64,000 nucleotides of DNA from Escherichia phage EAWsc9: sequence record PQ341120.1. The stretch is one strand, 5' to 3'. The stretch's first letter is position 1, and every line of letters begins with the position of its first letter. The notes under the pieces were generated by a model. The model had not been told where the DNA came from. It was given only the letters and a program-made list of their open reading frames with translations, and made no database searches. Shown here piece after piece: positions 6,228-42,317 of this stretch. A program made the translations under genes and the position numbers.

Positions 6228-6400
6228 AATTTAATTTCCTTAGCTACTGAACAAAATACACCACGGTCACAAATCATTTTAATATTAAGGTCAATTATGG
6301 TATACCACACATCCAGACTAGATATTTCAGTTACTAGAACAGCTTTGCCGTTGATTGAATAATACTGGTTGACTTTAATTTCTTTATCTTGGATAGTCAT
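6224..6400 (-). CDS. hypothetical small protein (below the 60-aa ORF-track cutoff)
   Basis: hand-translated 58-aa ORF MTIQDKEIKVNQYY...; ATG at 6400 preceded by GAGGAAAACATA and an early promoter at 6432-6461. Confidence 0.3.
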   Translation of the reverse strand: MTIQDKEIKVNQYYSINGKAVLVTEISSLDVWYTIIDLNIKMICDRGVFCSVAKEIKL

Positions 6401-6431
6401 TATGTTTTCCTCATCATTAGTTGATGGGATA

Positions 6432-6461
6432 ATGATACACCGTTCAAAGGGGCTTGTACAC
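6432..6461 (-). promoter_or_regulatory. early sigma70-type promoter (-35 GTGTACA, 17-bp spacer, -10 TATCAT)
   Basis: revcomp of plus tgtacac (6455-6461) and atgata (6432-6437); -35 lies in the loop of a GGGG/CCCC hairpin downstream of nrdH. Confidence 0.45.
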
Positions 6462-6466
6462 CCCTT

Positions 6467-6784
6467 TTAATCTTCAATTAAGTCCTGGTCATACCCCAGG
6501 GATATCAGTTTTGTTTTAAAGGCAGGAATATTGGTCATTTTTTCATCATTGACAAAAATCACCGGGTAACGAATGTTAAGGGTAGGATATCCAGCACGCT
6601 TAGCCAGAGACACGATTAAAGGCCTGTCATAAGCGATTTCAGAGCCTTGTTTGTTAAGGACTGAATAGAATGTATAAGGAAGGTTTAAGGAGCCCAGAAG
6701 GCTCCTGACGTGCATACAACCAGGGCATCGACCGACTTCTTCGGGGATACCATAGATTTCAATCTTAGTCGAGTTTTGGCCCAC
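6467..6784 (-). CDS. nrdH: NrdH-like glutaredoxin
   Basis: 105 aa; CPGC redox motif near N-terminus; position between gene 55 and nrdG as in T4. Confidence 0.7.
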   Translation of the reverse strand: MGQNSTKIEIYGIPEEVGRCPGCMHVRSLLGSLNLPYTFYSVLNKQGSEIAYDRPLIVSLAKRAGYPTLNIRYPVIFVNDEKMTNIPAFKTKLISLGYDQDLIED

Positions 6785-10356: not shown

Positions 10357-10629
10357 TTAAACAATCCTAAAACAAGGATAATGACATTCAACGTTACCAT
10401 TATCAATTATCATATACTCAGTGATACAGGTCCATGACCCTTCAATTTCTATGGTATCAAAAAGGTATTCATCTGTTTCAACAACGTCCCAAACATTACA
10501 TTCAACATCAGGGTCAAAACGTTGTCTTAACGCATGGATAACATCACCATTTTTAAATCCTGCGTCTTGAAGCTCTTTCATAAAACCTGATTGAGCAGCC
10601 GCATGAATATTAACAATTTCTAAAAACAT
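10357..10629 (-). CDS. hypothetical protein
   Basis: 90-aa minus ORF. Confidence 0.35.
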   Translation of the reverse strand: MFLEIVNIHAAAQSGFMKELQDAGFKNGDVIHALRQRFDPDVECNVWDVVETDEYLFDTIEIEGSWTCITEYMIIDNGNVECHYPCFRIV

Positions 10630-12729: not shown

Positions 12730-13715
12730 TTCAGCAGCTCCAGAGCCTGTTCCAGTTTATCCAGACGATTAGTTGATTCTTCCCAAAGTCGCTTGGCTTT
12801 GGTATAGTCTTCAGTTGCCTTTTTATTAACAGCAAGAGCTTTATTATACGCCATTTCCAGAGCAACAATTTCAGGCGCTTTTTGTTCCACTGGCTCATTA
12901 TTCAGATTATCAATCAGGTCTTCAAGGGTGGTTTCTTGCGGAGCATTCATAATTTCCTCACTTTTCTTTTTATAAATTTCTGCATCAGTTGGTTGTTTTG
13001 CGCATTTAACTTCGCGTAATGTCACCACAATTTTCCAACCTTTCCAACCATGAGTACTGGTGATAGGGTCTACTTTAATTTTTTCAACAGTACGCATATA
13101 ATTAAGGGCACACTGCATCTGTGAAGTAAGCGTACTCGCAGCATCAAAATACTTTTTGACATTTTCTGGAGTAGCCACTGGCGTAAAGAATCCATACTTA
13201 GCTGTAATAATTACCTGGTTTTCACCAGACTCTTTAACCTTGACCATGTGCTCAGCCAAATGGGAGATAGTGCGATAATCGCCACCCATCAGCTTTGTTG
13301 CTGATTTGATGATAGACATTTTGTTATCTCTGAATTCACGAGCCCAGCAATTTGCGAATTCAGAAACAGTATAGCCTTGATTATCAAGGTAGTATTTTTC
13401 AACATCACCAAACCAATGATATCCAATTGTACCTTTACCACGTCTGGATTCAACACCAAACTTATTAAGAAGGTCTTTATTAACTAGGTATGCCAGGACT
13501 CGGGAACCTTTAAAAGTTTTCTTGATATCATCTTTACCGGCACGACTCGCAATAGTCGCAATGTCTTTCTTGAAGCGACCGGATGCAACAATCGTCGAGT
13601 CAATCTGATTTAACCAGTAATTGATAATTAAAAGGATAGCCGATTCACCTATTAATGGTTTTACTTTTGCATCGATAGTGGTGTTAAAGGCCTGGATATA
13701 TTCGTTACGCGTCAT
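12726..13715 (-). CDS. hypothetical protein with C-terminal coiled coil
   Basis: 329 aa; no catalytic motif recognised; leucine-rich heptads at C-terminus. Confidence 0.45.
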   Translation of the reverse strand: MTRNEYIQAFNTTIDAKVKPLIGESAILLIINYWLNQIDSTIVASGRFKKDIATIASRAGKDDIKKTFKGSRVLAYLVNKDLLNKFGVESRRGKGTIGYHWFGDVEKYYLDNQGYTVSEFANCWAREFRDNKMSIIKSATKLMGGDYRTISHLAEHMVKVKESGENQVIITAKYGFFTPVATPENVKKYFDAASTLTSQMQCALNYMRTVEKIKVDPITSTHGWKGWKIVVTLREVKCAKQPTDAEIYKKKSEEIMNAPQETTLEDLIDNLNNEPVEQKAPEIVALEMAYNKALAVNKKATEDYTKAKRLWEESTNRLDKLEQALELLK

Positions 13716-13773
13716 AGTGTTCTCCTCATAAAGTAGGAATTCATTATACTCCCTCCATCCTTGGAAGTAAACA

Positions 13774-14685
13774 TTATTTTAATGCTAAAATCGCCGCCTG
13801 CAATTTATTGCGTTGTTTTTCCATGTTCTTGATGCGATTCAGAACATCCTGGATACCCTTTTTCTCATCTTCAATCAGACCGTTTAAGCGGTTGACTGAT
13901 TCCTGGATAGCATCAGCATGATAGCTCTCAATAGGCTTCATTGGTGGGTTAAAGATTTCAAGAGAGCTGTTTGGCTGGATTTTCCATTGATACATATTTT
14001 TAACTTCCAGTGGTGAAATTTTAGCCTGGTCGTAAGATTTAAACTGACCTGTAACTGCTGGGTTATATGCTGCAGTAGGGGTTTCCATTTCTGGTTCCTT
14101 TTTCTCTTGATAAGGAGCATAAGACAAAAGATATTCTTTAGTTAATTTAATATCAATGACTATAGTTTTAAGGAATTTTTCTGTTTGATGGATATAATTT
14201 GTATCTTCTTCAAACGTGTATGCTTCAACGGCATGACGCATATAAAACAGAGCAATACCCATAACCTCTTTAAAGGTATCACAAAGAGCAACATCACCCT
14301 TAGTAGTTGGCTTGAACTTAATCTGCACGCCATCGTTCTTGATATTAATAATCAAGTTATCGGAGTTAAAATTATAGTTCTTGATGTTAACCGGAGCCTT
14401 GCGAATACGAAGCCCTGCAGCCAGGATTTCCTTAATGCTCTTACGAACTGTGGCACCAAACAAAAACGCAGGGCGGCGGCAGTAATCATTCAGAGAGTTA
14501 ATTCTTACAATACGTTGTCCATACCCCTGGGTGGCAGAACCTGATTTGATTTTACCAAAGTTAACCAGAGAATTCATCGCGATAAGACGGGTTGCACGAC
14601 CTTCACGCTGTTCAAATCGAGAATATTCTTTACGTGTTTTAATTTTCATATCATAATCCAAATAATTTTTCATAGAGTTTAGCAA
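13774..14685 (-). CDS. hypothetical protein with C-terminal coiled coil
   Basis: 303 aa by ORF track; true start may be MKIKTRK at 14649; C-terminal heptad repeats. Confidence 0.45.
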   Translation of the reverse strand: MLNSMKNYLDYDMKIKTRKEYSRFEQREGRATRLIAMNSLVNFGKIKSGSATQGYGQRIVRINSLNDYCRRPAFLFGATVRKSIKEILAAGLRIRKAPVNIKNYNFNSDNLIINIKNDGVQIKFKPTTKGDVALCDTFKEVMGIALFYMRHAVEAYTFEEDTNYIHQTEKFLKTIVIDIKLTKEYLLSYAPYQEKKEPEMETPTAAYNPAVTGQFKSYDQAKISPLEVKNMYQWKIQPNSSLEIFNPPMKPIESYHADAIQESVNRLNGLIEDEKKGIQDVLNRIKNMEKQRNKLQAAILALK

Positions 14686-15776: not shown

Positions 15777-16301
15777 TTATGCGAGAACCGTCTTTAAACG
15801 CTCTTCAAACTTCTGAAGGAGTACCTGGCGCTCTGCTCTTTGTTTGGTATAGGTTTCAATACGCTCTGAAGTGAGATTGTATTGTTCATTAACTGATTCC
15901 CTCATGAATTCAGGAATCTCTTTACATGCTTTGATTTCATTGAACTTATCAAGCACCGCTTGTTGTTCAGCAATCAGACCATCATAATATTGGATATCTG
16001 ATTTGATGTTTTGTACATCAGATTCAGTAGGCATATTTTTCTTCGCTCTTGTCGCCTGATACTCTGCATTAGTCTCTCTTGACCAGAACAAAGAGCGATT
16101 TTTGTTGGTGTTTTTATACACATCAACAATACCTACTGAATCAACAGTCACAATCCAGTTCCAGGCGTTTTTATAAGTTTGACCACCTGATACTGTAATC
16201 TCACCCGCACAAGCAACATCATTAAAGAACTTGCTTTGTGCTTCTGATTTAAAATTACCATTATTGTAATTAATCAGATTAAAGATTGATTTGGCTTCCA
16301 T
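15777..16301 (-). CDS. hypothetical protein
   Basis: internal ATG at 16301 (MEAKSIFNL...) preceded by CTGGAGAATAAA RBS and early promoter cassette. Confidence 0.4.
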   Translation of the reverse strand: MEAKSIFNLINYNNGNFKSEAQSKFFNDVACAGEITVSGGQTYKNAWNWIVTVDSVGIVDVYKNTNKNRSLFWSRETNAEYQATRAKKNMPTESDVQNIKSDIQYYDGLIAEQQAVLDKFNEIKACKEIPEFMRESVNEQYNLTSERIETYTKQRAERQVLLQKFEERLKTVLA

Positions 16302-16337
16302 TTTATTCTCCAGTATTTGGTAACTCAGTATGGGAAC

Positions 16338-16367
16338 ATTATACGCCCATCCCCATACCATGTACAC
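16338..16367 (-). promoter_or_regulatory. early sigma70-type promoter (-35 GTGTACA, 17 bp, -10 TATAAT) with conserved leader
   Basis: plus attata 16338-16343, tgtacac 16361-16367; followed on mRNA by CCCATACTGAGTTACCAAATA...GGAGAATAAAATG. Confidence 0.5.
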
Positions 16368-16369
16368 AT

Positions 16370-16672
16370 TTAATTAAAAGTTCTTTCAGTATTTTCACCA
16401 CTGAACCAGACGCTCTTAACGGCTTGCTGGGCGCGATGTAGCTGCTCTGCCATATAAACACCAAGGGCCTCAGCCTTACGTGTCCTGTGGGCTTCTGCGG
16501 CGACTATTTGCAACTTATCCATCATGATAAGAGCTTTACATTTCTCCTTCAGAGCATATCGCTTCTTCTCTTCTGGAGTTTTGACCATTCCTCTTAACTT
16601 GTGCATTTTCAACTTAAAATGGTCAGCAGATTTCAGACATGCCTCAATCATGTCAAGTTCATACTTTTTCAT
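16370..16672 (-). CDS. hypothetical protein
   Basis: 100-aa minus ORF. Confidence 0.4.
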   Translation of the reverse strand: MKKYELDMIEACLKSADHFKLKMHKLRGMVKTPEEKKRYALKEKCKALIMMDKLQIVAAEAHRTRKAEALGVYMAEQLHRAQQAVKSVWFSGENTERTFN

Positions 16673-16678
16673 AATTCC

Positions 16679-16885
16679 TCACTTGCGACGACGTTTTGGT
16701 AATGGTTTAGGGAAGAACATTGCTTTACCTGCAGGGGTCAAAGTCACACGCAAAGCATTACCAATACCAAGGGATGCTTTAACCAGACCTTTGGCTTTTA
16801 ACTCACCAAATGCTTGACGTTGTTCAGGGTCACGAGTGTTAACCATCAGACCTTTTTCACCAGCAGCTTTGATTAATTCTAACAT
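16679..16885 (-). CDS. hypothetical basic protein
   Basis: 68 aa; ATG at 16885 behind GGAGAATAAA RBS and promoter cassette. Confidence 0.4.
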   Translation of the reverse strand: MLELIKAAGEKGLMVNTRDPEQRQAFGELKAKGLVKASLGIGNALRVTLTPAGKAMFFPKPLPKRRRK

Positions 16886-16926
16886 TTTATTCTCCGTTTG
16901 TTTATTTGGTAACTCAGTATGAAATC

Positions 16927-16956
16927 ATTATGCATCATGACCATCTGGTTGTACAC
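16927..16956 (-). promoter_or_regulatory. early sigma70-type promoter (-35 GTGTACA, 17 bp, -10 CATAAT) with conserved leader
   Basis: plus attatg 16927-16932, tgtacac 16950-16956. Confidence 0.45.
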
Positions 16957-17002
16957 ATATACTAAATAAAAATACTTAATAAAACCATAAAGGAGAAAGT
17001 TT

Positions 17003-17749
17003 ATGATTTTATCCGGAAGAACTGTTGATGAACTCAATGAAAAAGTCCAGGCTGCCTTGGCTAATAATTGGTATTTGTTTGGTTCTACTATGGTGTTGCC
17101 GAATACCCCTACAGATAGCAAAGAGCGTTTTTTCCAAACTATGTCCAGCTCGGAAACTCAGATACCGGGCCCGCCTGGGCCAAAAGGAGACCCGGGTGTA
17201 CCAGGACCAAAAGGAGACCCAGGCGGGGATGGAAAGTCTTCTTATCAGATATGGCTTGACTTGGGAAATACAGGAACTGTTGATGATTTTTTAACTGATA
17301 CAGCAGGAAAGAGGGAAAAATCCGAGGTGTTTTGGAGTGGTATAAACGTTCTATTAACTAATGGTACGACTTCAAACATAATTAGTGTTTTAAAGGGGAT
17401 TCCACCGACTGCAGGGACTCTATCTCCGTTTTTTAGAACCACTGATGATAAGTTGTGGCCATATAACCAAGACAGAAGCCTAATGTTTAAACTCAACCTT
17501 ATTGGTAATTTTGCAGGAGCCTCGCAAGCTCGAAGTATAACATTAAATTTCGTTGGAACCAACGGAAACACTTATATACAGAATCGTCCGGAAAATGCTA
17601 CAGATATTTTGTCTTTTACAACGTTCTTTAGCATTGATAAAGATGGGGCAATGGCAACCAATGGTACAGCTATAACTGTTATGCCAAATGGCGGCAACTT
17701 TACAATAACCTCTGCATTGTTAGTAGCCGAACAAACAGTGACTTCATAA
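17003..17749 (+). CDS. collagen-like repeat protein with tail-fibre-type motif and C-terminal globular domain
   Basis: 248 aa; AAAGGAG RBS 8 nt upstream of ATG; GPPGPKGDPGVPGPKGDPGGDG Gly-X-Y repeats followed by GKSSYQIWLDLGNTGTVDDFL; only convincing plus-strand gene in the early block. Confidence 0.6.
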   Translation: MILSGRTVDELNEKVQAALANNWYLFGSTMVLPNTPTDSKERFFQTMSSSETQIPGPPGPKGDPGVPGPKGDPGGDGKSSYQIWLDLGNTGTVDDFLTDTAGKREKSEVFWSGINVLLTNGTTSNIISVLKGIPPTAGTLSPFFRTTDDKLWPYNQDRSLMFKLNLIGNFAGASQARSITLNFVGTNGNTYIQNRPENATDILSFTTFFSIDKDGAMATNGTAITVMPNGGNFTITSALLVAEQTVTS

Positions 17750-20994: not shown

Positions 20995-21201
20995 TTATTC
21001 CACCACATATGATAATGAGAAAATTGCTGATGAAAGATGGGTAGCATCTTCTTCACACAGTTCAAATGGAGCTTTCTGTAAGAGTTCAACCACTTCTTCA
21101 TCAGTGGCACTGTCCATAAAGATTGCATAATCATTAAGATAGATAACAACCTCATCACCAGTATTAACTGCATCAATCTTGATATTTTTAATTCTCATCA
21201 T
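20995..21201 (-). CDS. hypothetical acidic protein
   Basis: 68 aa; ATG at 21201 behind GAGGAGAAC RBS and promoter 21227-21256. Confidence 0.35.
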   Translation of the reverse strand: MMRIKNIKIDAVNTGDEVVIYLNDYAIFMDSATDEEVVELLQKAPFELCEEDATHLSSAIFSLSYVVE

Positions 21202-21226
21202 GTTCTCCTCAGTAGTTGATGGGATA

Positions 21227-21256
21227 ATAGTACACCCTTTTTATGAGGATGTAAAC
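21227..21256 (-). promoter_or_regulatory. early sigma70-type promoter (-35 GTTTACA, 17 bp, -10 TACTAT)
   Basis: plus tgtaaac 21250-21256 and atagta 21227-21232. Confidence 0.45.
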
Positions 21257-21266
21257 CCCCTAAATG

Positions 21267-21296
21267 AAAAAAGGTCCACCCGAAGGCAGACCTTTT
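21267..21296 (-). terminator. intrinsic terminator
   Basis: minus strand AAAGGTC...GACCTTT stem followed by TTTTCATTT, just downstream of ORF 21300..21683. Confidence 0.5.
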
Positions 21297-24829: not shown

Positions 24830-25288
24830 TTAGATATAAATCACTTTTGTGCTAATTTTTCCTTCCAGACGATTAGAGTTAACAAACGCCATACGACAAC
24901 ACATGGTCGGAGACTTCCCAGGAATAGCGGGGTTAACTGTCATTCCTAACCATAGGTTCTTGTCCGTGATTTCCAGACGAAGTGGACGGTAGTTCACATT
25001 CGGGTCAATTTGTGCTTCAACTTCCGGGAGTGGTTTCATCTCCAAGAATTCAACGATTTCTTTTACATGTGGTGTGATTTTTCCAAACAAGTCAAAAACA
25101 TATTGTTCATCAATTTCACGTTGGATTGCACGGTCCAACAGGTGCGGACTGTACTTAATGAAGAATGCTTCAAGGCCTGCTTCTTTACAAGCCTTGTTGA
25201 TAGCATTATTAATTTTGAGGAACTCCGTTTCAAAAATGCGACGAAGTTTATTGCGGCGAATGTAAACACTTGAATCGATAGTAGTCAT
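24830..25288 (-). CDS. regB: RegB site-specific endoribonuclease
   Basis: internal ATG at 25288 behind AAGGAG gives 152 aa; VYIRRNKLRRIFETEF...KYSPHLLDRAIQREIDEQYVF matches T4 RegB from memory. Confidence 0.85.
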   Translation of the reverse strand: MTTIDSSVYIRRNKLRRIFETEFLKINNAINKACKEAGLEAFFIKYSPHLLDRAIQREIDEQYVFDLFGKITPHVKEIVEFLEMKPLPEVEAQIDPNVNYRPLRLEITDKNLWLGMTVNPAIPGKSPTMCCRMAFVNSNRLEGKISTKVIYI

Positions 25289-25344
25289 GATTATCTCCTT
25301 TTGTTTGATGGGATAATCATAACTCATTTCAATCTGCTTGTACA

Positions 25345-25924
<580 letters not shown>

Positions 25925-27105: not shown

Positions 27106-27366
27106 TTACGCTTTACCGCCGGAAACAATACCAAAGGTCTCAAAGTCCCATTCAATATCATCAACATCAACTTTCTTACCAGCAACCACGAATGCGATTT
27201 CGCGACGTTTTGCATAGGTGACAATTTCTTTACCATCACCACCAAAGAAAGAATAACCATTGCGCTTCATGGTGCCAAAGTCTTCAGCATCGCCAGCAAA
27301 GGCGCGAACTTTAAAAGCACCAGTAGGAGCTTTGGCTTCTGTGATAAATTCTTGATAAGTTTTCAT
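27106..27366 (-). CDS. internal-protein-like protein with N-terminal capsid-targeting sequence
   Basis: ATG at 27366 gives 86 aa starting MKTYQEFITEAK; 5' DNA end nearly identical to those of the 40042 and 40353 genes. Confidence 0.55.
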   Translation of the reverse strand: MKTYQEFITEAKAPTGAFKVRAFAGDAEDFGTMKRNGYSFFGGDGKEIVTYAKRREIAFVVAGKKVDVDDIEWDFETFGIVSGGKA

Positions 27367-27414
27367 TTTATATTCCATTGTTTGGTTGATAAAATCATTA
27401 TACAACCTTTTTAG

Positions 27415-27831
27415 TTAAGCGTACACAGCTTTCCCATAGTATTTGTACCAGGTAGGCTTTTGAGAAATTTTCTCATTCAGTCTGGCTTGACTGATTTCAA
27501 TTGACCAGATTGATGGTTGATAATCATTCTTCCATTCATCAGGAATATCAGTTAAATCTTGGGTAGAAATATCTTTTATGTTAAACCCTCGCTTTAAACA
27601 TTCCGCAATAAGTTCTTGATGCCGGTTTTTAAGGAACAAAAGCTTATCATAAAAGAAGGTGACATGACCAGTCCCTAAAAGGAAAGATGATGGGATTTTA
27701 AAGTCAGACACCTTTTTACCATTTTGCACATGCTTACGAACAGCGCCAAAAACGCGAGGAAGTTCACGATATTCAGCCATAAGATGTTGGTCAGCGAGTT
27801 CAGATACCAGGGTTAAATTAATGCGAGTCAT
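27415..27831 (-). CDS. denV: DenV endonuclease V (pyrimidine-dimer DNA glycosylase)
   Basis: 138 aa; [35 protein letters not shown]...[11 protein letters not shown] near-identical to T4 DenV from memory. Confidence 0.92.
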
Positions 27832-27857
27832 GTTTGTTCTCCGTAGTTGATAGGGTC

Positions 27858-27887
27858 ATTATAACCCTATCATTTGGAGATGTACAC
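27858..27887 (-). promoter_or_regulatory. early sigma70-type promoter upstream of denV
   Basis: plus attata 27858-27863 and tgtacac 27881-27887, 17-bp spacer; overlaps palindrome gatagggt...accctatc. Confidence 0.45.
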
Positions 27888-28375
27888 TAATATGCGTCAA
27901 AAGTTCCGGTGCGGAAAGTTTCAATAACTCGTTTAGCCCGGTTCGGAGTCTGGACTTTATACCATCTTGAGTCTGCCAGTTCCTTGGCAGCCGCTTCCCA
28001 TGATTTAGCCTTCAGCAATCGCATACCCTTAGGAAAACCAGCAACACCAGCAACACCCATCTGGAATACCATATTAATGAGTGCACAACGACGAACTTCA
28101 TCAAGTACATCATAAACAGGTTTTAAGACAGGATGTCTCAAGATTCCGGCTTTAGCCTTTTCGACCGAACGGTTAAACAGTGTTTCGGCTTCGTGCTGGG
28201 TTATACGACCATTACAGACGCGACCCATGAGCTTATCGAGCTCGGCGCGAGCAACATCTTTTGATGGGTTCTTAGTTATCAGTTGCCCGATACCAATGGT
28301 CCAATAGCCTTCAGTATCTTTATACAAATCCAACTTACAACCTTCATCTATGCGTAACATTTCGAATATATTCAT
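27887..28375 (-). CDS. e: lysozyme (endolysin, T4 e-type)
   Basis: 162 aa; [12 protein letters not shown]...[13 protein letters not shown] with catalytic E11/D20/T26 context; matches T4 lysozyme from memory. Confidence 0.92.
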
Positions 28376-29673: not shown

Positions 29674-30365
29674 TACCAGCCCTCCATGGGGAATTCCAGA
29701 TATACTTGAGCATTAACGCGGATTTCATTGGTAACTTTATTAACACGGTCAGTTTTACGAGATACGCGACCAAACCAACGCCAACCGTTACTAACTGTTT
29801 TTGTTCCAGTATGCCATGTCTGCCAGTTGAATTCACATAATGTGCGGTCAGGAGCTTCTTGAACTAAAAGTTCACCTGCCTTGATTTTTTCCAGAACTTC
29901 CTGGTGCCACTGGCGATAGATAAGTTCGCCATCAGGAATCTGACTGAATTCTGCAGTTCCAAGAGCAAAATTAGTAGGGCAAACAGAAGCGTTAACCAGA
30001 CCCAGGATGTGTTCAGAATGGTAACGAGGGTTATCATAATCAGGTTGTCCTGCTGTAATAAAATGTTGTCCTGCTGGAATATCTGGACGTGGTACATCAT
30101 CATGGTGATACCCAGGGATAGCGGGATACCAACCAGGCATCAACATATGGACGCGAGAATCAAACACCAAATTATCAGGACCATCAGTCCATTCTTTTGG
30201 TAGGTTATCAAGAAAACTGCGCGTGATTGGGCCACCATGCTTATGCGCAAATTCTGGATAGCAGTTAAAGAACATAGGCTCATTTTTGATTTGGTCATTA
30301 CTGATATCTTGAGCAAATTGACCAACTTCACGCATTTGACTATTAAAAGTTTTTGAACTATTCAT
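29673..30365 (-). CDS. hypothetical protein, His-rich
   Basis: 230 aa; several His/Asp clusters (YHHDD, HSEH) that could bind metal; fold not assigned. Confidence 0.4.
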   Translation of the reverse strand: MNSSKTFNSQMREVGQFAQDISNDQIKNEPMFFNCYPEFAHKHGGPITRSFLDNLPKEWTDGPDNLVFDSRVHMLMPGWYPAIPGYHHDDVPRPDIPAGQHFITAGQPDYDNPRYHSEHILGLVNASVCPTNFALGTAEFSQIPDGELIYRQWHQEVLEKIKAGELLVQEAPDRTLCEFNWQTWHTGTKTVSNGWRWFGRVSRKTDRVNKVTNEIRVNAQVYLEFPMEGW

Positions 30366-30424
30366 AATATTTTCCTCATTGATTGTGGGACCATTGTGTC
30401 ATAGTCCCACTTGGATGTACACAC

Positions 30425-31384
30425 TTATTTTTCGAAAGGACGAATTAAATGTTGGTTAGCTTTGAAACGTTTAACATAGTCTTCGTGCCCCAGGGTGTTG
30501 TACATATTAACCACTTCCTGATAATGTTCCCAAGCATACTCGCGGAACCATCCAGAAGTAATGGAGGTGCAGACTTTTTCCAGAGCAATATGGAAGCTCA
30601 CGGATGGAGAGATATTGAACTCATTGGGAACCTGCGAACGCTCCAGAGCGAGTACACATGCTTCTTCATAAACCCCTGCCAGTTTAATAATCTCAGGGAG
30701 TGCTTCAAATTTTTCACGCGAGGTCATAACTTCTGAATCATCCTTCATATAGAACTTATATGCAGGCTTATCAGCAAGCGCCACAGCCTCGTGGATGGAG
30801 TCATGGTCAAGGGTATAGATTGTATCATTAAAGAAAGTTTTCTTGCCCACGTCTAGTTTAGGGTGACTATATGACAATGTTTCTGCCTGGCGCTGCAGCA
30901 TGATTTTATGCAGTTCGTCATTAAGAACAACACCCTTATTGCGAAGGTAATTAATATGACTCATTGTCTTCAGGAAGAATGGATTGTTCTTCAGGTAACG
31001 ATGAGACAGTTTAATTGCCAGACAAATATCAGGAGTCGCCCAATAGAAACCTGTAAGACGGTCTTTCTTAATATGATTTTCAGCGTATTTCAAGAGACGA
31101 TAACTTGAGGTGAAATCTTCATCTTGAAGCTCACCAGTAATTTCTCGTACGTTAGTCAGGGCACGGACAATATAAGCTTCAAAATAGGTTTCTTTTCCAT
31201 TGTACATACATTTAAAAGCTTGGACATCAGGGTTATCCACAGGAACATGAGCACCGAACATACGTGCTTTAAAGTGGTTCCAGGAGCCCTGGTCAGCGAT
31301 AAAGTCCCAATCAGAGTTTTCAATTTTCTGACTTTCAATCAGACCAGCGTTATGTAATGCACGAGAACCAATAACTAACATCAT
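30425..31384 (-). CDS. hypothetical protein with possible nucleotidyltransferase-like N-terminus
   Basis: 319 aa; N-terminal IGSRAL...x17...SDWDF loosely resembles a GS...DxD nucleotidyltransferase signature; weak. Confidence 0.4.
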   Translation of the reverse strand: MMLVIGSRALHNAGLIESQKIENSDWDFIADQGSWNHFKARMFGAHVPVDNPDVQAFKCMYNGKETYFEAYIVRALTNVREITGELQDEDFTSSYRLLKYAENHIKKDRLTGFYWATPDICLAIKLSHRYLKNNPFFLKTMSHINYLRNKGVVLNDELHKIMLQRQAETLSYSHPKLDVGKKTFFNDTIYTLDHDSIHEAVALADKPAYKFYMKDDSEVMTSREKFEALPEIIKLAGVYEEACVLALERSQVPNEFNISPSVSFHIALEKVCTSITSGWFREYAWEHYQEVVNMYNTLGHEDYVKRFKANQHLIRPFEK

Positions 31385-31575: not shown

Positions 31576-31776
31576 TCAAATAATACCGTATGCGTAAATA
31601 TCTCTTTTAATGCAGGAAACTACTTCTTCCAAAGAATCACAAACACGTTCTGTGGCGCCTGCGTAATCACCACTGATGGTTACTTTAATGCCATCAGAAA
31701 CTTCCTGGAGATTAACCTCCAGTTGGTTGACTTTGGCTTCGTTCAGAACTTTGATTAATTCGTTTGCGATAGACAT
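31576..31776 (-). CDS. hypothetical protein
   Basis: 66 aa; AGGAGA RBS. Confidence 0.35.
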   Translation of the reverse strand: MSIANELIKVLNEAKVNQLEVNLQEVSDGIKVTISGDYAGATERVCDSLEEVVSCIKRDIYAYGII

Positions 31777-31840
31777 TTTTATTCTCCTGTTCTGATAACG
31801 TGATTGTCATCAGTTGATAGGAGTATAGTAACACAGTTTT

Positions 31841-32170
31841 TTAGACTTGTATACTGCTTCTACAATATTCTAAAAATAATTTATCGTTGTTTACCTTATC
31901 CCAACGACGCCAAGATGGATTCCAGACCAGAGCGTTGTCACCGCAATCATTGAGCTTAAAGTGGTCGTAGTACATAGCTATATGTCTGGTTTCGTCACCA
32001 GAGAACCCCAGTATATGCTCACCGTGGGTATGATACATATGATGATGCATTGAGAGGTCGCATTTGTAAAACATCTCACGTTTACCACGAACGAACAAGA
32101 AGGCTTGCTCATTCATATAGAATTCTTTATCTGTTTTCAAAAGATATTTGAATACCGAATCTTTATGCAT
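31841..32170 (-). CDS. hypothetical His-rich protein
   Basis: ATG at 32170 behind AGGAGG gives 109 aa; SMHHHMYHTHGEH cluster. Confidence 0.35.
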   Translation of the reverse strand: MHKDSVFKYLLKTDKEFYMNEQAFLFVRGKREMFYKCDLSMHHHMYHTHGEHILGFSGDETRHIAMYYDHFKLNDCGDNALVWNPSWRRWDKVNNDKLFLEYCRSSIQV

Positions 32171-32428: not shown

Positions 32429-32646
32429 GAGCTCGGGTACCAGATTTTACCGTCGGCGCGGGCAACGAAGGTACGACCAGCTTCTTCGCCGTAACAAGAG
32501 CTATTCAGCCAATCTTCAAGACGAACTTCACCGTCATAATCATCTAGCTCAACACCAAAATCCTGAGCAGAAGCCATATCTTTTACTTTCTTATACAGGG
32601 CAGCCAGTTCAAGAGCAGCTTTTTCTAATTCGTTAATATCAGTCAT
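32422..32646 (-). CDS. small protein, C-terminal W-Y-P-S-S-C tail family member D
   Basis: 74 aa; TAAGGAA RBS; ends ...GKIWYPSSC. Confidence 0.45.
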   Translation of the reverse strand: MTDINELEKAALELAALYKKVKDMASAQDFGVELDDYDGEVRLEDWLNSSCYGEEAGRTFVARADGKIWYPSSC

Positions 32647-32656
32647 TTTTTATTCC

Positions 32657-32854: not shown

Positions 32855-32862
32855 AACATTCC

Positions 32863-33144: not shown

Positions 33145-33153
33145 AACGTTTCC

Positions 33154-35377: not shown

Positions 35378-35683
35378 TTAGATTTTGTTTTCCTGCACAC
35401 CATAATAAAGTTCATCAGACACAATATCCAGGATGCGGCGAACATATTCATCATGGTATTGGCAGTCAAAATCAAATGCAACAGTAGTTTCCGCTTCACG
35501 AGTGAATTTAACTTGCACATTCAGGTGATTAACAACGTTAGTTAATTTATCAGTAAAGAACTCTTTTGCTACCGCCTGTTGGACTTGCACTTTAAACTTG
35601 GTGTTGCGAATCATATTTTCAGCAGATGCGAAATTACCAGTTTTATCAAAGTCAACAAGCGCCAGGTTGATGATGAATTTCAT
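35378..35683 (-). CDS. hypothetical protein
   Basis: 101 aa; ATG at 35683 behind CACTGGAGAATAAA leader cassette. Confidence 0.35.
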   Translation of the reverse strand: MKFIINLALVDFDKTGNFASAENMIRNTKFKVQVQQAVAKEFFTDKLTNVVNHLNVQVKFTREAETTVAFDFDCQYHDEYVRRILDIVSDELYYGVQENKI

Positions 35684-35724
35684 TTTATTCTCCAGTGTTT
35701 TATTTGGTAACTCAGTATGGAATC

Positions 35725-35754
35725 ATTATGCCTTAAAGCAGGGGGCTTGTATAC
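35725..35754 (-). promoter_or_regulatory. early sigma70-type promoter (-35 GTATACA, 17 bp, -10 CATAAT) with conserved leader
   Basis: plus attatg 35725-35730 and tgtatac 35748-35754; -35 in loop of GGGGG/CCCCC hairpin. Confidence 0.45.
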
Positions 35755-35766
35755 CCCCTTTTTGAA

Positions 35767-36234
35767 TTAAATTTCAAATTCTTTGCGGAAGTTGGAAGCA
35801 TAAGACTGAACTGATGCTTTGTTGAATCCAAACTCACGCACAATCATATCAATAACAGCTCTGCGAGCAGCACCATTAGACATATTAACAGTTTTGAACA
35901 TATCATAGCATAAATCTTTGTTGCTCATACCGGAGCGTTTAGGTGCCTTACGTTCAGCTTTTGGTTCAGCTTTTGGTTCAGCTTTTGGTTCAGCTTTAGG
36001 AGTAGGTTTAACTTCTGGTTTAACCTGTCCATCATTCAGACCTTTAAAAATTTTACCTGCCAGAGTTGCCAGTTTAGCAGCTTCGCCACGAGTGATACCA
36101 AATACTGCCGGGTTAAATGAAATACCTTCAGCTGCCAGACGTTTGAAGAACATACGTGCTGCGGATTGTGCTTCAGCTTCAGAAGAGTTGTTTAATGCCA
36201 GCTTAACGTACTTAACCAGTTTTGAAGTTTTCAT
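35767..36234 (-). CDS. hypothetical protein with (PKAE)4 tandem repeat and conserved C-terminal domain
   Basis: 155 aa; PKAEPKAEPKAEPKAE encoded by 12-nt direct repeats; C-terminal DGAARRAVID...VQSYASNFRK shared with ORF 36317..36742. Confidence 0.45.
   Translation of the reverse strand: MKTSKLVKYVKLALNNSSEAEAQSAARMFFKRLAAEGISFNPAVFGITRGEAAKLATLAGKIFKGLNDGQVKPEVKPTPKAEPKAEPKAEPKAERKAPKRSGMSNKDLCYDMFKTVNMSNGAARRAVIDMIVREFGFNKASVQSYASNFRKEFEI
35953..36000 (-). repeat. four tandem copies of a 12-nt coding repeat (plus-strand ttcagcttttgg)
   Basis: direct repeats read directly from sequence; encode P-K-A-E on the minus strand. Confidence 0.8.
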
Positions 36235-36316
36235 TTTATTCTCCAGTGTTTTATTTGGTAACTCAGTATGGGATAATTATACACTATCCCACCTGGAAGT
36301 AAAACACTTTTCTCAA

Positions 36317-36742
36317 TTATTTTTGAGCTTTGCGGAAGTTGGAAGCATATGACTGAACAACAGTCTTTTTGATATCATAGGTGTTAACCAGAACATCAAT
36401 CAGGGCGCGGCGAGCTGCACCATCTGCCATATCAATTTCTGCAAATGCCTGGAAGCAAATGTCACGAGCATTACCAGATTTGGACTGGATTTTTTCTTCT
36501 TTAACTTCTTCAATTGGGAATTCAATCATTTCAGCTTGGATTAATTCAATGATAGATTCTTTTGACTGTTTGGTGTTTACCTTCAGTTCAGAATTAAGGG
36601 ACTTAGCGATGGCAACAATCTGGGTTGAAGTCAGATGAATAAGTGCATCTTCACGAATGCAGATTTCACATACTTCGTCGGCAACCATTTTGTTAGTGAT
36701 GCGGGTAACAGAGAATGCAGAAGTCAGGGTCAGGAAGTTCAT
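36317..36742 (-). CDS. hypothetical protein, paralog of 35767..36234 C-terminal domain
   Basis: ATG at 36742 behind TTTGGAGAAATAAA gives 141 aa; C-terminus DGAARRALIDVLVNTYDIKKTVVQSYASNFRK. Confidence 0.45.
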   Translation of the reverse strand: MNFLTLTSAFSVTRITNKMVADEVCEICIREDALIHLTSTQIVAIAKSLNSELKVNTKQSKESIIELIQAEMIEFPIEEVKEEKIQSKSGNARDICFQAFAEIDMADGAARRALIDVLVNTYDIKKTVVQSYASNFRKAQK

Positions 36743-36793
36743 TTTATTTCTCCAAAGTTTTGTTTGATTCAGTGTGTAACTCAGTATGGAATC

Positions 36794-36823
36794 ATTATGC
36801 ATCCAGTCAATTCGGATGTACAC
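36794..36823 (-). promoter_or_regulatory. early sigma70-type promoter with conserved leader
   Basis: plus attatg 36794-36799 and tgtacac 36817-36823, 17-bp spacer. Confidence 0.45.
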
Positions 36824-36841
36824 TACTTTTTGAAGAAATAT

Positions 36842-36868
36842 TAAAAATAAACCCGCCGAAGCGGGTTT
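36842..36868 (-). terminator. intrinsic terminator
   Basis: minus strand AAACCCGC-TTCG-GCGGGTTT followed by ATTTTTA. Confidence 0.55.
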
Positions 36869-36870
36869 GA

Positions 36871-37425: not shown

Positions 37426-37447
37426 ACGTTTCTCTTTAGTTGATTTA

Positions 37448-39798: not shown

Positions 39799-39984
39799 TT
39801 ACTCACCTTTGGAGATTTTATCCATAACGAAAGAGATTGAACCAATTAAAAATGCAACTACTAAAGAGATTATATTCTCAGAAGTTGAAAGCATATTCAA
39901 CATAAAGCCAGCAAACATGCTAAAACCAAAAGCGGTAACAGCAACAAGGGCAGTAACATTTCTAATTAATTCGCAACGTTTCAT
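39799..39984 (-). CDS. hypothetical small membrane protein
   Basis: 61 aa, two hydrophobic helices. Confidence 0.3.
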   Translation of the reverse strand: MKRCELIRNVTALVAVTAFGFSMFAGFMLNMLSTSENIISLVVAFLIGSISFVMDKISKGE

Positions 39985-40041
39985 TTTATTCTCCTCAGTA
40001 GTTGATGGGATAATTATACGCTATCCCATTCAAAAGTACAC

Positions 40042-40296
40042 TTATTTTTTAGGGATACGATAGTAACGCATCTCAACATCTTTCTGCTTGTGCCACTTTT
40101 TGATAAGGTCTTCAGAACCTTTAATGGTAACGATGTCATAGCGACCATCATGCGATACTTCAGCACTTAACTGCATGAAGTTGTCTAGTGAACGGCGCAA
40201 TTCCTCATTAGAAAAACTACCACGCGGGGAACCAACATAAGCAAACTCAACTTTTGCATCTGCGGCTTCGTTAATAAATTCTTGATAAGTTTTCAT
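40042..40296 (-). CDS. internal-protein-like protein with capsid-targeting sequence
   Basis: 84 aa starting MKTYQEFINEAADAK. Confidence 0.55.
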   Translation of the reverse strand: MKTYQEFINEAADAKVEFAYVGSPRGSFSNEELRRSLDNFMQLSAEVSHDGRYDIVTIKGSEDLIKKWHKQKDVEMRYYRIPKK

Positions 40297-40352
40297 GTTG
40301 TCTCCAGTAGTTGATGGGATAATTATACTGCAGTTATCCCATCGCGTATACT

Positions 40353-40595
40353 TTATTTTAAGTCTTCCAGACGTTTTTTCATCTTGGTGCCATTCTTAGC
40401 AATTTCGCCAGCATCAGAACAAAGAGCGAGGAGAGCTTTAACTTTACCCTGGTCGCCTTTAAAAGATGATGCATCTACAGAATCAGCAAGTTCTTTGATA
40501 CGTGCAAACAGGCGCTCTGCTTCAGCAAGGGCTTGGCCAAGTTTAACTTCCATACCATGGGAAGATTCTGTTATAAATGTTTGATAAGTTTTCAT
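40353..40595 (-). CDS. internal-protein-like protein with capsid-targeting sequence
   Basis: ATG at 40595 behind GGAGA gives 80 aa starting MKTYQTFITESS. Confidence 0.55.
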   Translation of the reverse strand: MKTYQTFITESSHGMEVKLGQALAEAERLFARIKELADSVDASSFKGDQGKVKALLALCSDAGEIAKNGTKMKKRLEDLK

Positions 40596-40611
40596 GTTGT
40601 CTCCAAGCCAT

Positions 40612-40632
40612 AAAAAGGGGATAATTATCCCC
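40612..40632 (-). terminator. intrinsic terminator between two internal-protein genes
   Basis: palindrome GGGGATAATTATCCCC followed by TTTTTAT on the minus strand. Confidence 0.45.
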
Positions 40633-40640
40633 ATTTGTTA

Positions 40641-41229: not shown

Positions 41230-41562
41230 TTATTTATAAAGTTTTGCCAGTTCTTTACGTCCGCGAGCAGACATAATAAATTGTTCATCGCCAATTTTAA
41301 AATAAGCCATACCGCCGTCAACAGCGATACCAATTTCTTTAGTACCTTCTTTGCCTTTCCACTTGCCACCAGATTTCAGGACAGCTTCAACTGCAGCTTT
41401 GGAATATTTGGACGTTTGAAAACGTTCATTACCAATCTGAAAGAAAACACCATCTGCATTTTTGGTTAAACCAAATTTCAGAGAGCCTTCACTATCATCA
41501 ATTGATTTGGTCTCATTGATGGCGGATTCGGCTAAAAACTCGTTGTAAGTTTTGATGTTCAT
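41230..41562 (-). CDS. internal-protein-like protein with capsid-targeting sequence
   Basis: 110 aa starting MNIKTYNEFLAESA. Confidence 0.5.
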   Translation of the reverse strand: MNIKTYNEFLAESAINETKSIDDSEGSLKFGLTKNADGVFFQIGNERFQTSKYSKAAVEAVLKSGGKWKGKEGTKEIGIAVDGGMAYFKIGDEQFIMSARGRKELAKLYK

Positions 41563-41597
41563 ATTAACTCCGTTTGTTCATTCGTTGGTGTAGGAAC

Positions 41598-41626
41598 ATA
41601 ATACTGTACCTACACTTATTTGTACA

Positions 41627-41627
<1 letters not shown>
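41598..41627 (-). promoter_or_regulatory. early sigma70-type promoter (-35 GTGTACA, 17 bp, -10 TATTAT) heading the internal-protein array
   Basis: plus ataata 41598-41603 and tgtacac 41621-41627. Confidence 0.45.

Positions 41628-42317
<690 letters not shown>

Follow-up and report, generated by a model that had tools for sequence, protein, structure and literature searches.

The question raised by this locus is why genes of unrelated families on one strand of a T4-like phage genome are preceded by almost the same short sequence, which extends from a promoter-like element to the start codon. The window analysed here, the whole 64-kb stretch of Escherichia phage EAWsc9 DNA, is T4-like Gaprivervirus DNA that spans approximately the region from gene 46 to the baseplate genes and shares 97–99% identity with Gaprivervirus genomes. 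A sequence-only reading had distinguished two types of repeated module in front of minus-strand genes and had proposed a genome-wide motif search. A search of this kind, performed with a profile built from the cassettes, returned 16 sites over the whole 64-kb window, all on the minus strand, with E values from 1e-13 to 7e-7; beyond these 16, no site with E <0.01 was found in the window. In an unbiased repeat search over the whole window, the same cassettes account for the four direct-repeat families of greatest size (D1–D4). Because the profile and the repeat search unite them, types 1 and 2 are part of one 16-member family: both repeats exist, but they are sub-families of one continuum and not separate modules. 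The cassette consists of an AT-rich tract, the −35 element (G)TGTACA, a 17-nt spacer, a TATAAT-like −10 element and CCC before the likely start, continued by a short G-poor leader, a GGAG Shine-Dalgarno sequence and the ATG. All 16 cassettes end in a Shine-Dalgarno sequence and an ATG, 20–50 nt past the −10. They are confined to the early region, and none is located among the plus-strand baseplate genes beyond approximately 45 kb.

The genes behind the cassettes include nrdC.8, internal-protein (IP) genes and ORFs of 68, 101, 141 and 155 aa without a Pfam domain; known genes stand behind three cassettes, namely regB, denV and the nrdC.4 homolog. The downstream families are unrelated to each other and comprise nrdC.8 (phrog_2274), phrog_6001, phrog_7474, the tRNA.4 homolog (phrog_1692), the IPs, denV and regB. 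The cassettes are sited in a hyperplastic region ahead of small uncharacterised genes, as are the PeSLs described for RB49/phi1 (Arbiol et al. 2010, PMC2839356) and for PST/T4 and nt-1/KVP40 (Comeau et al. 2014, PMC4122927). PeSLs activate small accessory genes early in infection and are sometimes crossover points for gene gain or loss. It is extremely unlikely that the repeats are by-products of tandem gene duplication, in which promoter and gene were copied together. The adjacent cassette genes starting at 36234 and 36742 do share a C-terminal domain (cross-hit between phrog_18416 and phrog_9997; 31-nt repeat D12), but the other cassette genes come from unrelated families, at least nine families carry the type-1 leader, the similarity ends at the ATG, and copies lie approximately 19 kb apart.

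The near-identical module that had been claimed for five minus-strand genes was found directly 5′ of all five ATGs, at 16301, 16885, 35683, 36234 and 36742. Its 19-nt core CATACTGAGTTACCAAATA occurs in four exact minus-strand copies (16314–16332, 16903–16921, 35701–35719 and 36252–36270), compared with 0.03 expected in the window. The fifth type-1 copy, at 36776–36789, retains CCATACTGAGTTAC and then diverges. The 37-nt string given for the module is exact before 35683 and 36234, but its middle part is shorter or altered in the other three copies. The −35 GT[G/A]TACA likewise applies to four of the five copies, which have GTGTACA or GTATACA, but not to 36304, where the sequence is TTTTACT; the 17-bp spacer is 17 nt long in the type-1 copies except at 36304, where it measures 16 nt. 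A 14-nt near-match at 46529–46542 was considered as a sixth type-1 copy and rejected as a chance match lacking promoter, Shine-Dalgarno and ATG context.

The individual type-1 cassettes are all on the minus strand. The cassette of the nrdC.8 homolog (ATG 16301; 16299..16395; profile E 4.5e-10) has its −35 GTGTACA at 16367, a TATAAT −10 crossed by the hairpin GTATGGG/CCCATAC (z −1.9), and the leader ATACTGAGTTACCAAATACT followed by GGAGAATAAAATG. The profile match at 16883..16971, before the 68-aa ORF (ATG 16885), combines −35 GTGTACA at 16956 with −10 CATAAT and again GGAGAATAAAATG. Position 16956 is the exact end of homology in 6 of 10 relatives. The plus-strand ORF 17003–17749 was considered as a homing endonuclease that would explain this breakpoint, and it was rejected on the basis of Pfam and PHROG, which point to a tail-needle-knob domain. 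Three further profile matches precede the 101-aa ORF (ATG 35683; 35681..35776), the 155-aa ORF (ATG 36234; 36232..36325) and, in diverged form, the 141-aa ORF (ATG 36742; 36740..36868). In the first of these, the −35 lies inside the hairpin GGGGG-TATACAAG-CCCCC and the 3′ end is GGAGAATAAAATG; the second has the −35 TTTACT and the hairpin GGGATA/TATCCC over its −10; just upstream of the third there is a terminator-like hairpin (36849–36868) with a T-run.

The type-2 sequence TTATCCCATCAACTA is present in four exact copies and one copy with two mismatches, compared with 0.22 expected in the window, and these precede the starts at 6400, 21201, 25288, 39984 and 40296. The corresponding minus-strand cassettes stand before the gp55.6 homolog (6398..6485; profile E 1e-13; −35 enclosed by the hairpin GGGG-TGTACAAG-CCCC), before the ATG at 21201 (21199..21296; a strong terminator-like hairpin at 21269–21296 immediately upstream), before regB (25286..25366; type-2-like, a profile match), before the tRNA.4 homolog (39982..40062; hairpin ATGGGATA/TATCCCAT, then GGAGAATAAAATG) and before the IP gene starting at 40296 (40294..40369; hairpin ATGGGATAA/TTATCCCAT). 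The remaining members, also on the minus strand, are the early promoter cassette of the nrdC.4 homolog (ATG 13715; 13713..13795; −35 GTTTACT, −10 TATAAT), that of an IP gene beginning MKTYQEFI... (ATG 27366; 27364..27449; small hairpin over the −10), the denV cassette (ATG 27831; 27829..27910; a profile match), those of a 230-aa ORF (ATG 30365; 30363..30447; hairpin GTGGGAC/GTCCCAC over the −10, z −2.9) and a 66-aa ORF (ATG 31776; 31774..31876), and that of the first IP-like gene (ATG 41562; 41560..41640; hairpin GTGTAGG/CCTACAC over the −10). The cassette of the 66-aa ORF carries GGAGAATAAAA, and its locus is found in only 3 of 10 relatives. A hairpin-only remnant, GGGGATAATTATCCCC with a T-run followed by GGAGACAACATG, is located on the minus strand at 40596..40640 ahead of the IP gene at 40595. 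It resembles the cassette at 40351 without its −10 loop, and may represent a "half PeSL".

The elements upstream of the leader are those of a promoter. Across the 16 sites the form is TGTACA/TATACA/TTTACW, N17 and a TATAAT-like −10, and the −35 and −10 are invariant among orthologs. In the profile alignment the AT-rich tracts AAAAAGTA, TTAATTAAAT and AAAAAATAA lie immediately 5′ of the −35, and upstream stop codons are found within 5–25 nt. The proposed assignment to T4-type early promoters is borne out by the −35, the 17-nt spacer, the −10 and the C-rich positions −3..−1 when set against the T4-like early consensus. The sequence thus supports the view that the cassettes carry predicted sigma-70-type early promoters. 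A scan with a generic sigma-70 consensus gave 56 and 58 sites versus 45 and 60 expected in shuffles; since the number of sites is not above that in shuffles, such a scan cannot validate promoters, and the promoter sites are defined here by the family-specific profile and not by the generic consensus. For this phage, promoter activity, start site and cleavage are deduced from sequence features and from studies of T4, RB49 and phi1. The AT-rich UP-like tract, the −35 (G)TGTACA, the 17-nt spacer and the −10 TATAAT would recruit the host sigma-70 RNA polymerase right after infection, and transcription probably starts at the A of CCCAT. The early promoters of T4 have an UP element, −35 GTTTAC and −10 TATAAT, and C-rich positions −3..−1 occur in RB69, RB49 and 44RR. 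The cassettes share with T4 early promoters the A-rich upstream tract, a GT(T/G)TAC −35, the 17-nt spacer, TATAAT and CCC before the start. They differ from them in the third position of the −35, which is G in the cassettes and T in T4, in a TG that directly abuts the −10 instead of the canonical TGn, and in a conservation that reaches well into the transcript.

It has to be asked what the conserved transcribed part is for. The sequence-only reading had suggested a shared regulatory RNA element, and the leader could accordingly be a structured cis-regulatory RNA (a riboswitch, a thermosensor or a protein-binding hairpin) or a shared small-RNA target that co-regulates the genes. Such a role would be in keeping with the identity of 19–40 transcribed nt between unrelated genes and with the retention of the core CCATACTGAGTTAC across four genera. 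But the structure prediction proposed for the leader speaks against a structured RNA: six leaders folded from the predicted +1 contain no more structure than shuffles (z +0.7 to +1.9), and the Rfam scan of the window at the gathering threshold returned two tRNAs as its only matches and no leader family. Among orthologs, the stretch that separates the core from GGAG is constant neither in length nor in sequence, with a duplication in TH55, and the other near-matches to the core on either strand of the window are intragenic and lack promoter or start-codon context. Conservation of the leader above that of its surroundings in related phages was seen in part. The leader value of 0.94 is modestly above that of third codon positions (0.88), so that the conservation of orthologous leaders is somewhat above that of synonymous sites, but it equals that of first and second positions (0.945). 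The relatives in this profile share 88–95% identity, and because they are this close the profile is only weakly informative on leader constraint. A regulatory RNA of either kind is regarded as very unlikely.

A better explanation for conservation as far as the ATG is a GGAG Shine-Dalgarno sequence that lies within a putative RegB site. GGAG is found in 13 of the 16 cassette genes, compared with 13 of 87 other early-strand genes (p = 3.5e-7). The strong cleavage consensus of RegB/S1 is GG*AGRAYARAA (Durand et al. 2006, cited in Uzan and Miller 2010, PMC3014915), and GGAGAATAAAA, at the conserved 3′ end of the leader, agrees with GGAGRAYARAA at all 11 positions. There are six exact matches to this 11-mer in 64 kb versus 0.39 expected, and all of them are in cassettes directly 5′ of the ATG; the exact 11-mer is thus present in 6 of the 16 cassettes, while the other 10 have only a partial match. 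The window also contains regB (24830..25288, minus strand; PF10715, E 2.2e-72), which encodes the endoribonuclease cutting GGAG in early ribosome-binding sites and is annotated as such in VR7, VR20 and ECML-359. Its product is likely to be the trans-acting partner of the GGAGAATAAAA motif. As in the RegB/S1 sites of T4, the motif is located where translation of promoter-proximal early genes begins, the RNA around it is unstructured, and regB is encoded nearby; in contrast to the strong sites of T4, the sites in this phage are putative and known from the motif match. The cassette's own leader is short, G-poor and, as the folding shows, unstructured, which would favour ribosome loading. In the best-conserved copies the Shine-Dalgarno GGAG is contained in GGAGAATAAAA, so that the presence of regB together with the motif match suggests cleavage by RegB at this point. 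Since the Shine-Dalgarno sequence and the RegB site coincide, we propose that one element provides a burst of translation followed by rapid shut-off. This suggests that each cassette packages an "on" function, the predicted strong early promoter with its open leader, and an "off" function, the presumed RegB cleavage, in one portable unit.

A second feature of the cassettes is a hairpin that spans the promoter. Ten of the 16 cassettes contain a stem-loop, which lies over the −10 in eight and over the −35 in two (z −1.6 to −5.1 versus dinucleotide shuffles); the strongest of the set is GATAGGGT/ACCCTATC of denV, which spans the −10 (z −5.1). The cassettes at 21256 and 36823 have terminator-like hairpins just upstream instead, and four other cassettes are without a convincing stem. 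The arm sequences vary between copies, as in ATGGGATA/TATCCCAT, GATAGGGT/ACCCTATC, GTGGGAC/GTCCCAC and GTGTAGG/CCTACAC. The promoters' own arms pair with a mean of −8.8 kcal/mol, compared with −5.5 kcal/mol for arms swapped between promoters (permutation p = 5e-5), and in 8 of the 16 promoters the own pair is better than every swap. The hairpin arms thus co-vary, which is evidence for selection of the promoter-spanning hairpin as a structure. Most of the −10-spanning hairpins have no following U-run, and these are therefore not canonical intrinsic terminators; T-rich tails are present at the copies 35754, 6461, 21256 and 36823. Transcripts of the cassette itself would begin within the 3′ arm, and the hairpin would thus be restricted to single-stranded DNA and to RNA that reads through from upstream. 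In the genes e, 49, soc and I-TevI of T4, transcripts from the internal promoter also lack the 5′ arm of a hairpin; there the ribosome-binding site is concealed by the hairpin, and the internal promoter belongs to the late class. Common to these cases and the cassettes are the promoter within the hairpin and a structure in the read-through RNA but not in the RNA of the internal promoter. Unlike in the T4 genes, the Shine-Dalgarno sequence of the cassettes follows the hairpin at a distance of 10–30 nt and is not sequestered by it. On the basis of the PeSL papers, the inverted repeat around the −10 (around the −35 in two cassettes) would serve to insulate transcripts arriving from upstream, to attenuate them or to stabilise them.

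For the conserved core ATACTGAGTTACC there is only a partial explanation: in some copies it forms the hairpin's 3′ arm. One could imagine that the core and the co-varying hairpin form a purpose-built "insulated expression plug" that goes beyond a passive promoter context, although we consider this unlikely. The core and the promoter spacer would then pair in read-through RNA into a hairpin that terminates the upstream message or protects it, and this hairpin would sit just 5′ of a RegB cut site, whereas in the cassette's own RNA the single-stranded core would serve as a specific enhancer or as a binding site for a phage or host factor. If this were true, dual-use selection and not hitch-hiking would explain the occurrence of the core in four genera and at least nine gene families. 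A related possibility is a dedicated factor that recognises the hairpin and promotes the exchange of cassettes.

The cassettes had also been proposed to be portable junctions that promote gene shuffling, a process that the literature already describes as mediated by PeSLs. Comparison with relatives shows crossovers at four of them, at 36304, 40351, 27426 and 40041. In six relatives a 98-aa gene lies between two type-1 cassettes, and the crossover site for its loss is the cassette at 36304. The gene is missing in the window and in ECML-359, both of which have the junction at the leader's 3′ end, and also in TH40, TH55 and TH41, where the junction is mid-leader and the leader is chimeric, with its 5′ half from one cassette and its 3′ half from the next. 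The two different junctions indicate that the gene was lost twice independently. At 36304 and 40351, relatives with the extra gene have cassette copies on both sides of it; in TH44 an additional IP gene is located between two full copies of the 40351 cassette. At 27426 the neighbouring IP gene is affected by an indel in five relatives, and the overlap lies in the shared leader and the capsid-targeting codons. At 40041, P8 has an additional IP gene between the promoter and the tRNA.4 homolog, with only Shine-Dalgarno microhomology. Since the copies share 40–90 nt, the efficient homologous recombination of the phage would occasionally cross over between cassettes and thereby delete, insert or swap the intervening gene, as is seen at the four loci with modest frequency. 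The spacing of the type-1 copies (repeat family D1) predicts excision circles of 589, 551 and 518 bp.

The comparison does not support these crossovers as the dominant route of gene exchange. Only 11 of 79 breakpoint clusters are inside cassettes, which make up 3.7% of the bases, and the other 68 are elsewhere, many at microhomologies or terminators. The per-base figure looked positive for a hot-spot, but the fairer per-junction comparison did not: breakpoints are present at 8 of 16 cassette junctions and at 32 of 83 other gene junctions, which is no significant enrichment (Fisher p = 0.42). Therefore the cassettes are not claimed as hot-spots, and only the crossovers inside them are. The absence of enrichment, the many indels that end at microhomologies or terminators without a promoter, and the invariance of the −35 and −10 among orthologs are what would be expected if very strong promoters and ribosome-binding sites were alike solely through functional convergence or purifying selection. 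The cassettes would then have no real role in recombination, and the coincidence with indels would merely reflect whole-gene indels that end in intergenic DNA. This explanation is unlikely. The identity runs through non-essential leader sequence, which argues for copying and not for convergence. The chimeric leader of TH40, TH55 and TH41, the other junction used for the same loss in the window and ECML-359, and the TH44 gene between two full copies also speak against it, as do the four longest overlapping-end indels (30–93 nt), all of which are at cassettes, compared with only 12–26 nt for those outside cassettes. In addition, experiments with RB49 and phi1 have demonstrated crossovers between PeSLs.

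An active mobilisation of the cassettes in an integron-like manner, by a dedicated phage recombinase or nuclease that recognises the hairpin or the core and excises or inserts genes, is very unlikely. The conservation of the hairpins as structure and the presence of the same cassette in several genera would agree with it, and a helper protein was raised as a possibility by the PeSL authors. But the crossover points differ between events and may be anywhere in the shared sequence, which fits homology-driven exchange and not a fixed cleavage site. Furthermore, no recombinase gene was seen adjoining the cassettes, and according to the PeSL reports short homology suffices for T4-type recombination.

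The cassettes are very probably PeSL-type self-contained early expression units of Gaprivervirus, placed before small and mostly uncharacterised genes. Another T4-like genus is thereby added to those with PeSLs; the importance of this is modest, and the current understanding is not changed. The 98-aa gene is a natural example of repeated loss: its two losses went through crossovers at different points of one 50-nt leader. In phages relevant to therapy, the cassettes can help to annotate early genes and promoters, and phage engineering could use them as a compact part for early expression.

A literature search on the early promoters of VR7 and JS98 found no account of these cassettes in Gaprivervirus. 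The type-1 "extra" leader forms a sub-family specific to the genus and has spread across at least nine unrelated protein families. It is also known from Gualtarvirus, Dhakavirus and one Tequatrovirus. Shuffling of the IP locus in T-even phages was described by Repoila et al. (1994), as cited in the PeSL reports. Similar to these loci, the IP genes at 40296, 40595, 40940, 41221, 41562 and 27366 share a promoter or leader together with a capsid-targeting N-terminus (MKTYQEF...), and the number and identity of IP genes differ between relatives, with junctions in the shared 5′ sequence. The repeat of the IP genes runs approximately 30 nt into the coding sequence, whereas the type-1 similarity ends at the ATG and the downstream proteins are unrelated. 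By analogy only, the cassettes resemble integron cassettes and attC sites in that repeated elements of imperfectly palindromic sequence border small accessory genes close to a promoter and that circular intermediates are proposed. Unlike integrons, they have no integrase and no fixed crossover point, each cassette contains a promoter, and the exchange is homology-driven.

The closest comparison is that with the PeSLs. The cassettes differ from the PeSLs of RB49/phi1, PST/T4 and nt-1/KVP40 in the genus and in the −35, which is (G)TGTACA and not TTGACA or TTTACW. Their arms are of the ATGGGATA/TATCCCAT type and not mostly a G-run and a C-run, GGGG...CCCC being found only at 35754 and 6461. A sub-family carries an extra conserved leader of 20–25 nt, and the Shine-Dalgarno region contains the exact RegB/S1 consensus, which is absent from the PeSL descriptions compared. 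Like the PeSLs, the cassettes are approximately 100 bp long and multicopy, are located ahead of small uncharacterised ORFs (ORFans) in hyperplastic regions, and combine an AT-rich tract, a sigma-70-type promoter, a stem-loop between the boxes or overlapping the −10 or −35, a Shine-Dalgarno sequence and an ATG. In both, elements can stand beside indels between close relatives, with crossovers from the −10 to the ATG or in the stem-loop, although for the cassettes this is seen at four loci and without significant enrichment over other gene junctions. The "half" elements known for PeSLs are probably represented here as well.

An unbiased repeat search of the whole window placed the promoter cassettes at the head of the list (D1–D4). 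The type-1 core CATACTGAGTTACCAAATA is present in four exact copies (0.03 expected), and the fifth type-1 copy retains CCATACTGAGTTAC. The repeats are real, and all five copies lie directly 5′ of the ATGs named in the sequence-only reading (16301, 16885, 35683, 36234 and 36742). The module described there needs slight amendment: the full 37-nt leader is exact in only two copies, and the −35 GTGTACA is replaced by a T4-like TTTACT in one of the five. The type-2 core TTATCCCATCAACTA occurs in four exact copies and one diverged copy, against 0.22 expected. The proposed division into two module types was not retained: scanning with a regular expression and then with a profile HMM revealed one family of 16 minus-strand cassettes (E 1e-13 to 7e-7), and the profile HMM detected nothing beyond these 16 in the window at E below 0.01. 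Common to them are an A/T-rich tract, (G)TGTACA separated by 17 nt from a TATAAT-like hexamer, (T/G)AT(C/T)CCAT, a short leader, a Shine-Dalgarno sequence and the ATG. Judging from the alignment, type 1 may be regarded as type 2 with approximately 18 additional nt between ACTGAG and GGAG.

The 2.1 kb surrounding the cassettes of the original observation share 98–99% identity with Yersinia phage vB_YenM_P8, the Escherichia phages ECML-359 and vB_EcoM_RZ and other Gaprivervirus genomes; by this similarity the genome is assigned to Gaprivervirus (Straboviridae, Tevenvirinae). By comparison with annotated VR7, the initial 50 kb lead from gene 46 through nrdC, tk, regB, denV, e, the tRNA and internal protein (IP) region and genes 57–4, all on the minus strand, and the baseplate genes follow beyond them on the plus strand. 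Two neighbouring tRNA genes (38390–38463 and 38466–38539, minus strand; RF00005, 73.7 and 62.2 bits) are located in a variable region, for which one tRNA is annotated in VR7 and two in VR20.

The earlier assignment of the cassettes as T4-type early promoters is supported at the sequence level: the predicted −35 GT(T/G)TAC and the C-run before the start match the published early-promoter logos of T4 relatives. A generic sigma-70 scan of the window was uninformative because its site counts did not exceed those in shuffles. The promoter call therefore relies on conservation within the cassette family and on placement, and draws nothing from the scan.

Alignment of the cassettes showed that inverted repeats flank the −10 hexamer, and that their arms vary between copies yet remain complementary (ATGGGATA/TATCCCAT, GATAGGGT/ACCCTATC, GTGGGAC/GTCCCAC, GTGTAGG/CCTACAC and GTATGGG/CCCATAC). 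In cassettes 35754 and 6461, preceding the ATGs at 35683 and 6400, the arms GGGG(G)...CCCC(C) surround the −35 and not the −10. Ten of the 16 cassettes give folds that are significantly more stable than those of dinucleotide shuffles (z −1.6 to −5.1). When the arms were swapped, the own 3′ arm gave a mean of −8.8 kcal/mol versus −5.5 kcal/mol for borrowed arms (permutation p = 5e-5), and the own pair was better than every swap in 8 of the 16 promoters. Since the predicted transcript of each cassette starts inside the 3′ arm, the hairpin is possible only in read-through RNA or single-stranded DNA. Upstream of the P8 tRNA.4 homolog lies a different element (P8 locus 10480–10533), whose hairpin GGTCTAG...CTAGACC around a TATCAT box is a further compensatory variant of the −10-spanning stem. 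In the Morganella phage vB_MmoM_MP1, a member of a different genus, the cassette of a 65-aa ORF (MKTLIKVV...) contains a perfect 13-bp inverted repeat, GGTAACTCAGTAT/ATACTGAGTTACC, spanning the −10, and the type-1 leader core ATACTGAGTTACC itself forms the 3′ arm. This core is strongly kept, and a role as hairpin arm accounts for some copies only.

The leader had also been considered a regulatory RNA. As a structured RNA it found no support: when folded from the predicted +1, leaders did not outperform shuffled sequences (z +0.7 to +1.9), an Rfam scan of the window returned two tRNAs only and no leader family, and the segment separating GGAG from the core differs in length among orthologs (AAATACTGGAG, AAATAAAACTGGAG, AAATAAACAAACGGAG), with a duplication in TH55. 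Orthologous leaders are as conserved (identity 0.94) as the first and second positions of codons (0.945), and only modestly more so than third positions (0.88) and promoter spacers (0.875). The proposal holds only insofar as the Shine-Dalgarno region doubles as a predicted RegB/S1 site. Strong sites of the T4 endoribonuclease RegB acting with S1 have the published consensus GG*AGRAYARAA and are found where translation of early mRNAs is initiated, in RNA that lacks structure (PMC3014915). The sequence GGAGAATAAAA agrees with this consensus at 11/11 positions, and this match offers an explanation for conservation as far as the start codon. Six exact matches occur in the window (0.39 expected), and 6/6 lie in cassettes, abutting the ATG. 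A GGAG Shine-Dalgarno sequence precedes 13/16 cassette genes versus 13/87 other early-strand genes (p = 3.5e-7), and the window contains a regB gene (PF10715, E ~2e-72) with its own cassette upstream. From these site matches, the presence of regB and the GGAG enrichment, the cassette therefore seems to carry on and off signals; it appears to combine a strong "on" signal with a RegB-dependent "off" signal, at which we infer cleavage.

A database search with a 50-nt leader query hit 46 records at a query coverage of 80% or more, mostly Gaprivervirus, where the type-1 leader occupies 10–14 places per genome. Single or few copies are found in Gualtarvirus (Morganella MP1, whose record annotates the leader as "promoter"), Providencia phages, Dhakavirus IME341 and one Tequatrovirus. 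Across the loci examined, at least nine unrelated protein families are encoded downstream. Gene duplication as the source of the repeats accounts only for the adjacent paralogs starting at 36234 and 36742. These two neighbours (35767–36234 and 36317–36742, minus strand), each behind a cassette, have a C-terminal domain in common (…VQSYASNFRK; phrog_18416 and phrog_9997 cross-hit) but are unrelated in their N-terminal halves. A (KAEP)n-like repeat is also present in the 155-aa protein starting at 36234.

The first 50 kb of the window were compared with ten relatives for breakpoints. The 98-aa gene VR7ORF146c lies between two type-1 cassettes in six relatives. It is missing from the window and ECML-359, where the upstream cassette is intact as far as the ATG, and from TH40, TH55 and TH41, where the leader is a chimera whose 5′ half comes from one cassette and whose 3′ half comes from the cassette that follows. 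The two arrangements represent independent losses with different crossover points inside approximately 50 nt. TH44 contains an extra IP gene flanked by two copies of cassette 40351 (before the ATG at 40296); in P8 an extra IP gene follows the promoter of cassette 40041 (before the ATG at 39984), with microhomology only, at the Shine-Dalgarno sequence. In five relatives an extra IP gene adjoins 27366, the overlap falling within the leader common to these genes and their codons for capsid targeting. The four indels whose ends overlap most (30–93 nt) are all at cassettes, and homology ends in six relatives exactly at 16956, the end coordinate of the sequence-only reading. Cassettes make up 3.7% of the bases and contain only 11 of the 79 breakpoint clusters; enrichment at cassette-bearing gene junctions was not significant (8/16 versus 32/83 other junctions, p = 0.42), and many small-gene indels terminate at Shine-Dalgarno-level microhomologies or at terminators. 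The suggestion of a portable junction for gene shuffling was right in kind, already published and reflected in visible exchanges, but without significant junction enrichment. Cassette-mediated exchange therefore occurs, as one route among several here.

Other variable loci were noted. A 184-aa gene (36871–37425, within 36846–37446, minus strand) is missing from TH54; this indel is bounded by terminators, not promoters, because each end of the deletion comes straight after a terminator hairpin with a T-run. At 32652–33181 (minus strand), small paralogous ORFs in tandem carry three copies of a 33-nt repeat at their 3′ ends, and breakpoints at 32631–32662 in seven relatives coincide with these repeats, a second, promoter-independent class associated with gene-number variation. 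A 248-aa ORF at 17003–17749 (plus strand, opposite to all neighbours) encodes collagen-like Gly-X-Y repeats (DNA repeat 17165–17218) together with a tail-needle-knob domain of the Sf6 type (PF16532, E 2.6e-32; phrog_1030, E 3e-67). For the early nrdC region of a T4-like phage, this is an unusual gene to carry. The window shares it with P8, ECML-359, TH54 and TH40, six other relatives lack it, and its insertion boundary is exactly the base just upstream of the −35 at 16956.

The cassettes correspond to promoter-early stem-loops (PeSLs), defined in RB49/phi1 (Arbiol et al. 2010, PMC2839356) and in PST/T4 and nt-1/KVP40 (Comeau et al. 2014, PMC4122927). PeSLs are conserved elements of approximately 100 bp upstream of ORFans in hyperplastic regions, adjoining indels; minicircles can arise from their recombination, and crossovers have been mapped to the loop or to the interval from the −10 to the ATG; and the papers name PeSL-like sequences in JS98, not in the VR7/SP18 group (PMC2839356; PMC4122927). 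A description of PeSL cassettes for Gaprivervirus was not found in the literature searched. Every sequence-level feature of a PeSL is present in the window cassettes. PeSL "half" elements also have a counterpart, at 40596–40640 (minus strand), before the IP gene at 40595: a hairpin-only remnant, GGGGATAATTATCCCC with a T-run, followed by GGAGACAACATG. It looks like the neighbouring cassette 40351 without its −10 loop, the promoter-hairpin having apparently turned into a plain terminator-like hairpin. The elements are PeSL-type early promoter cassettes, and the sequence-only reading rediscovered them.
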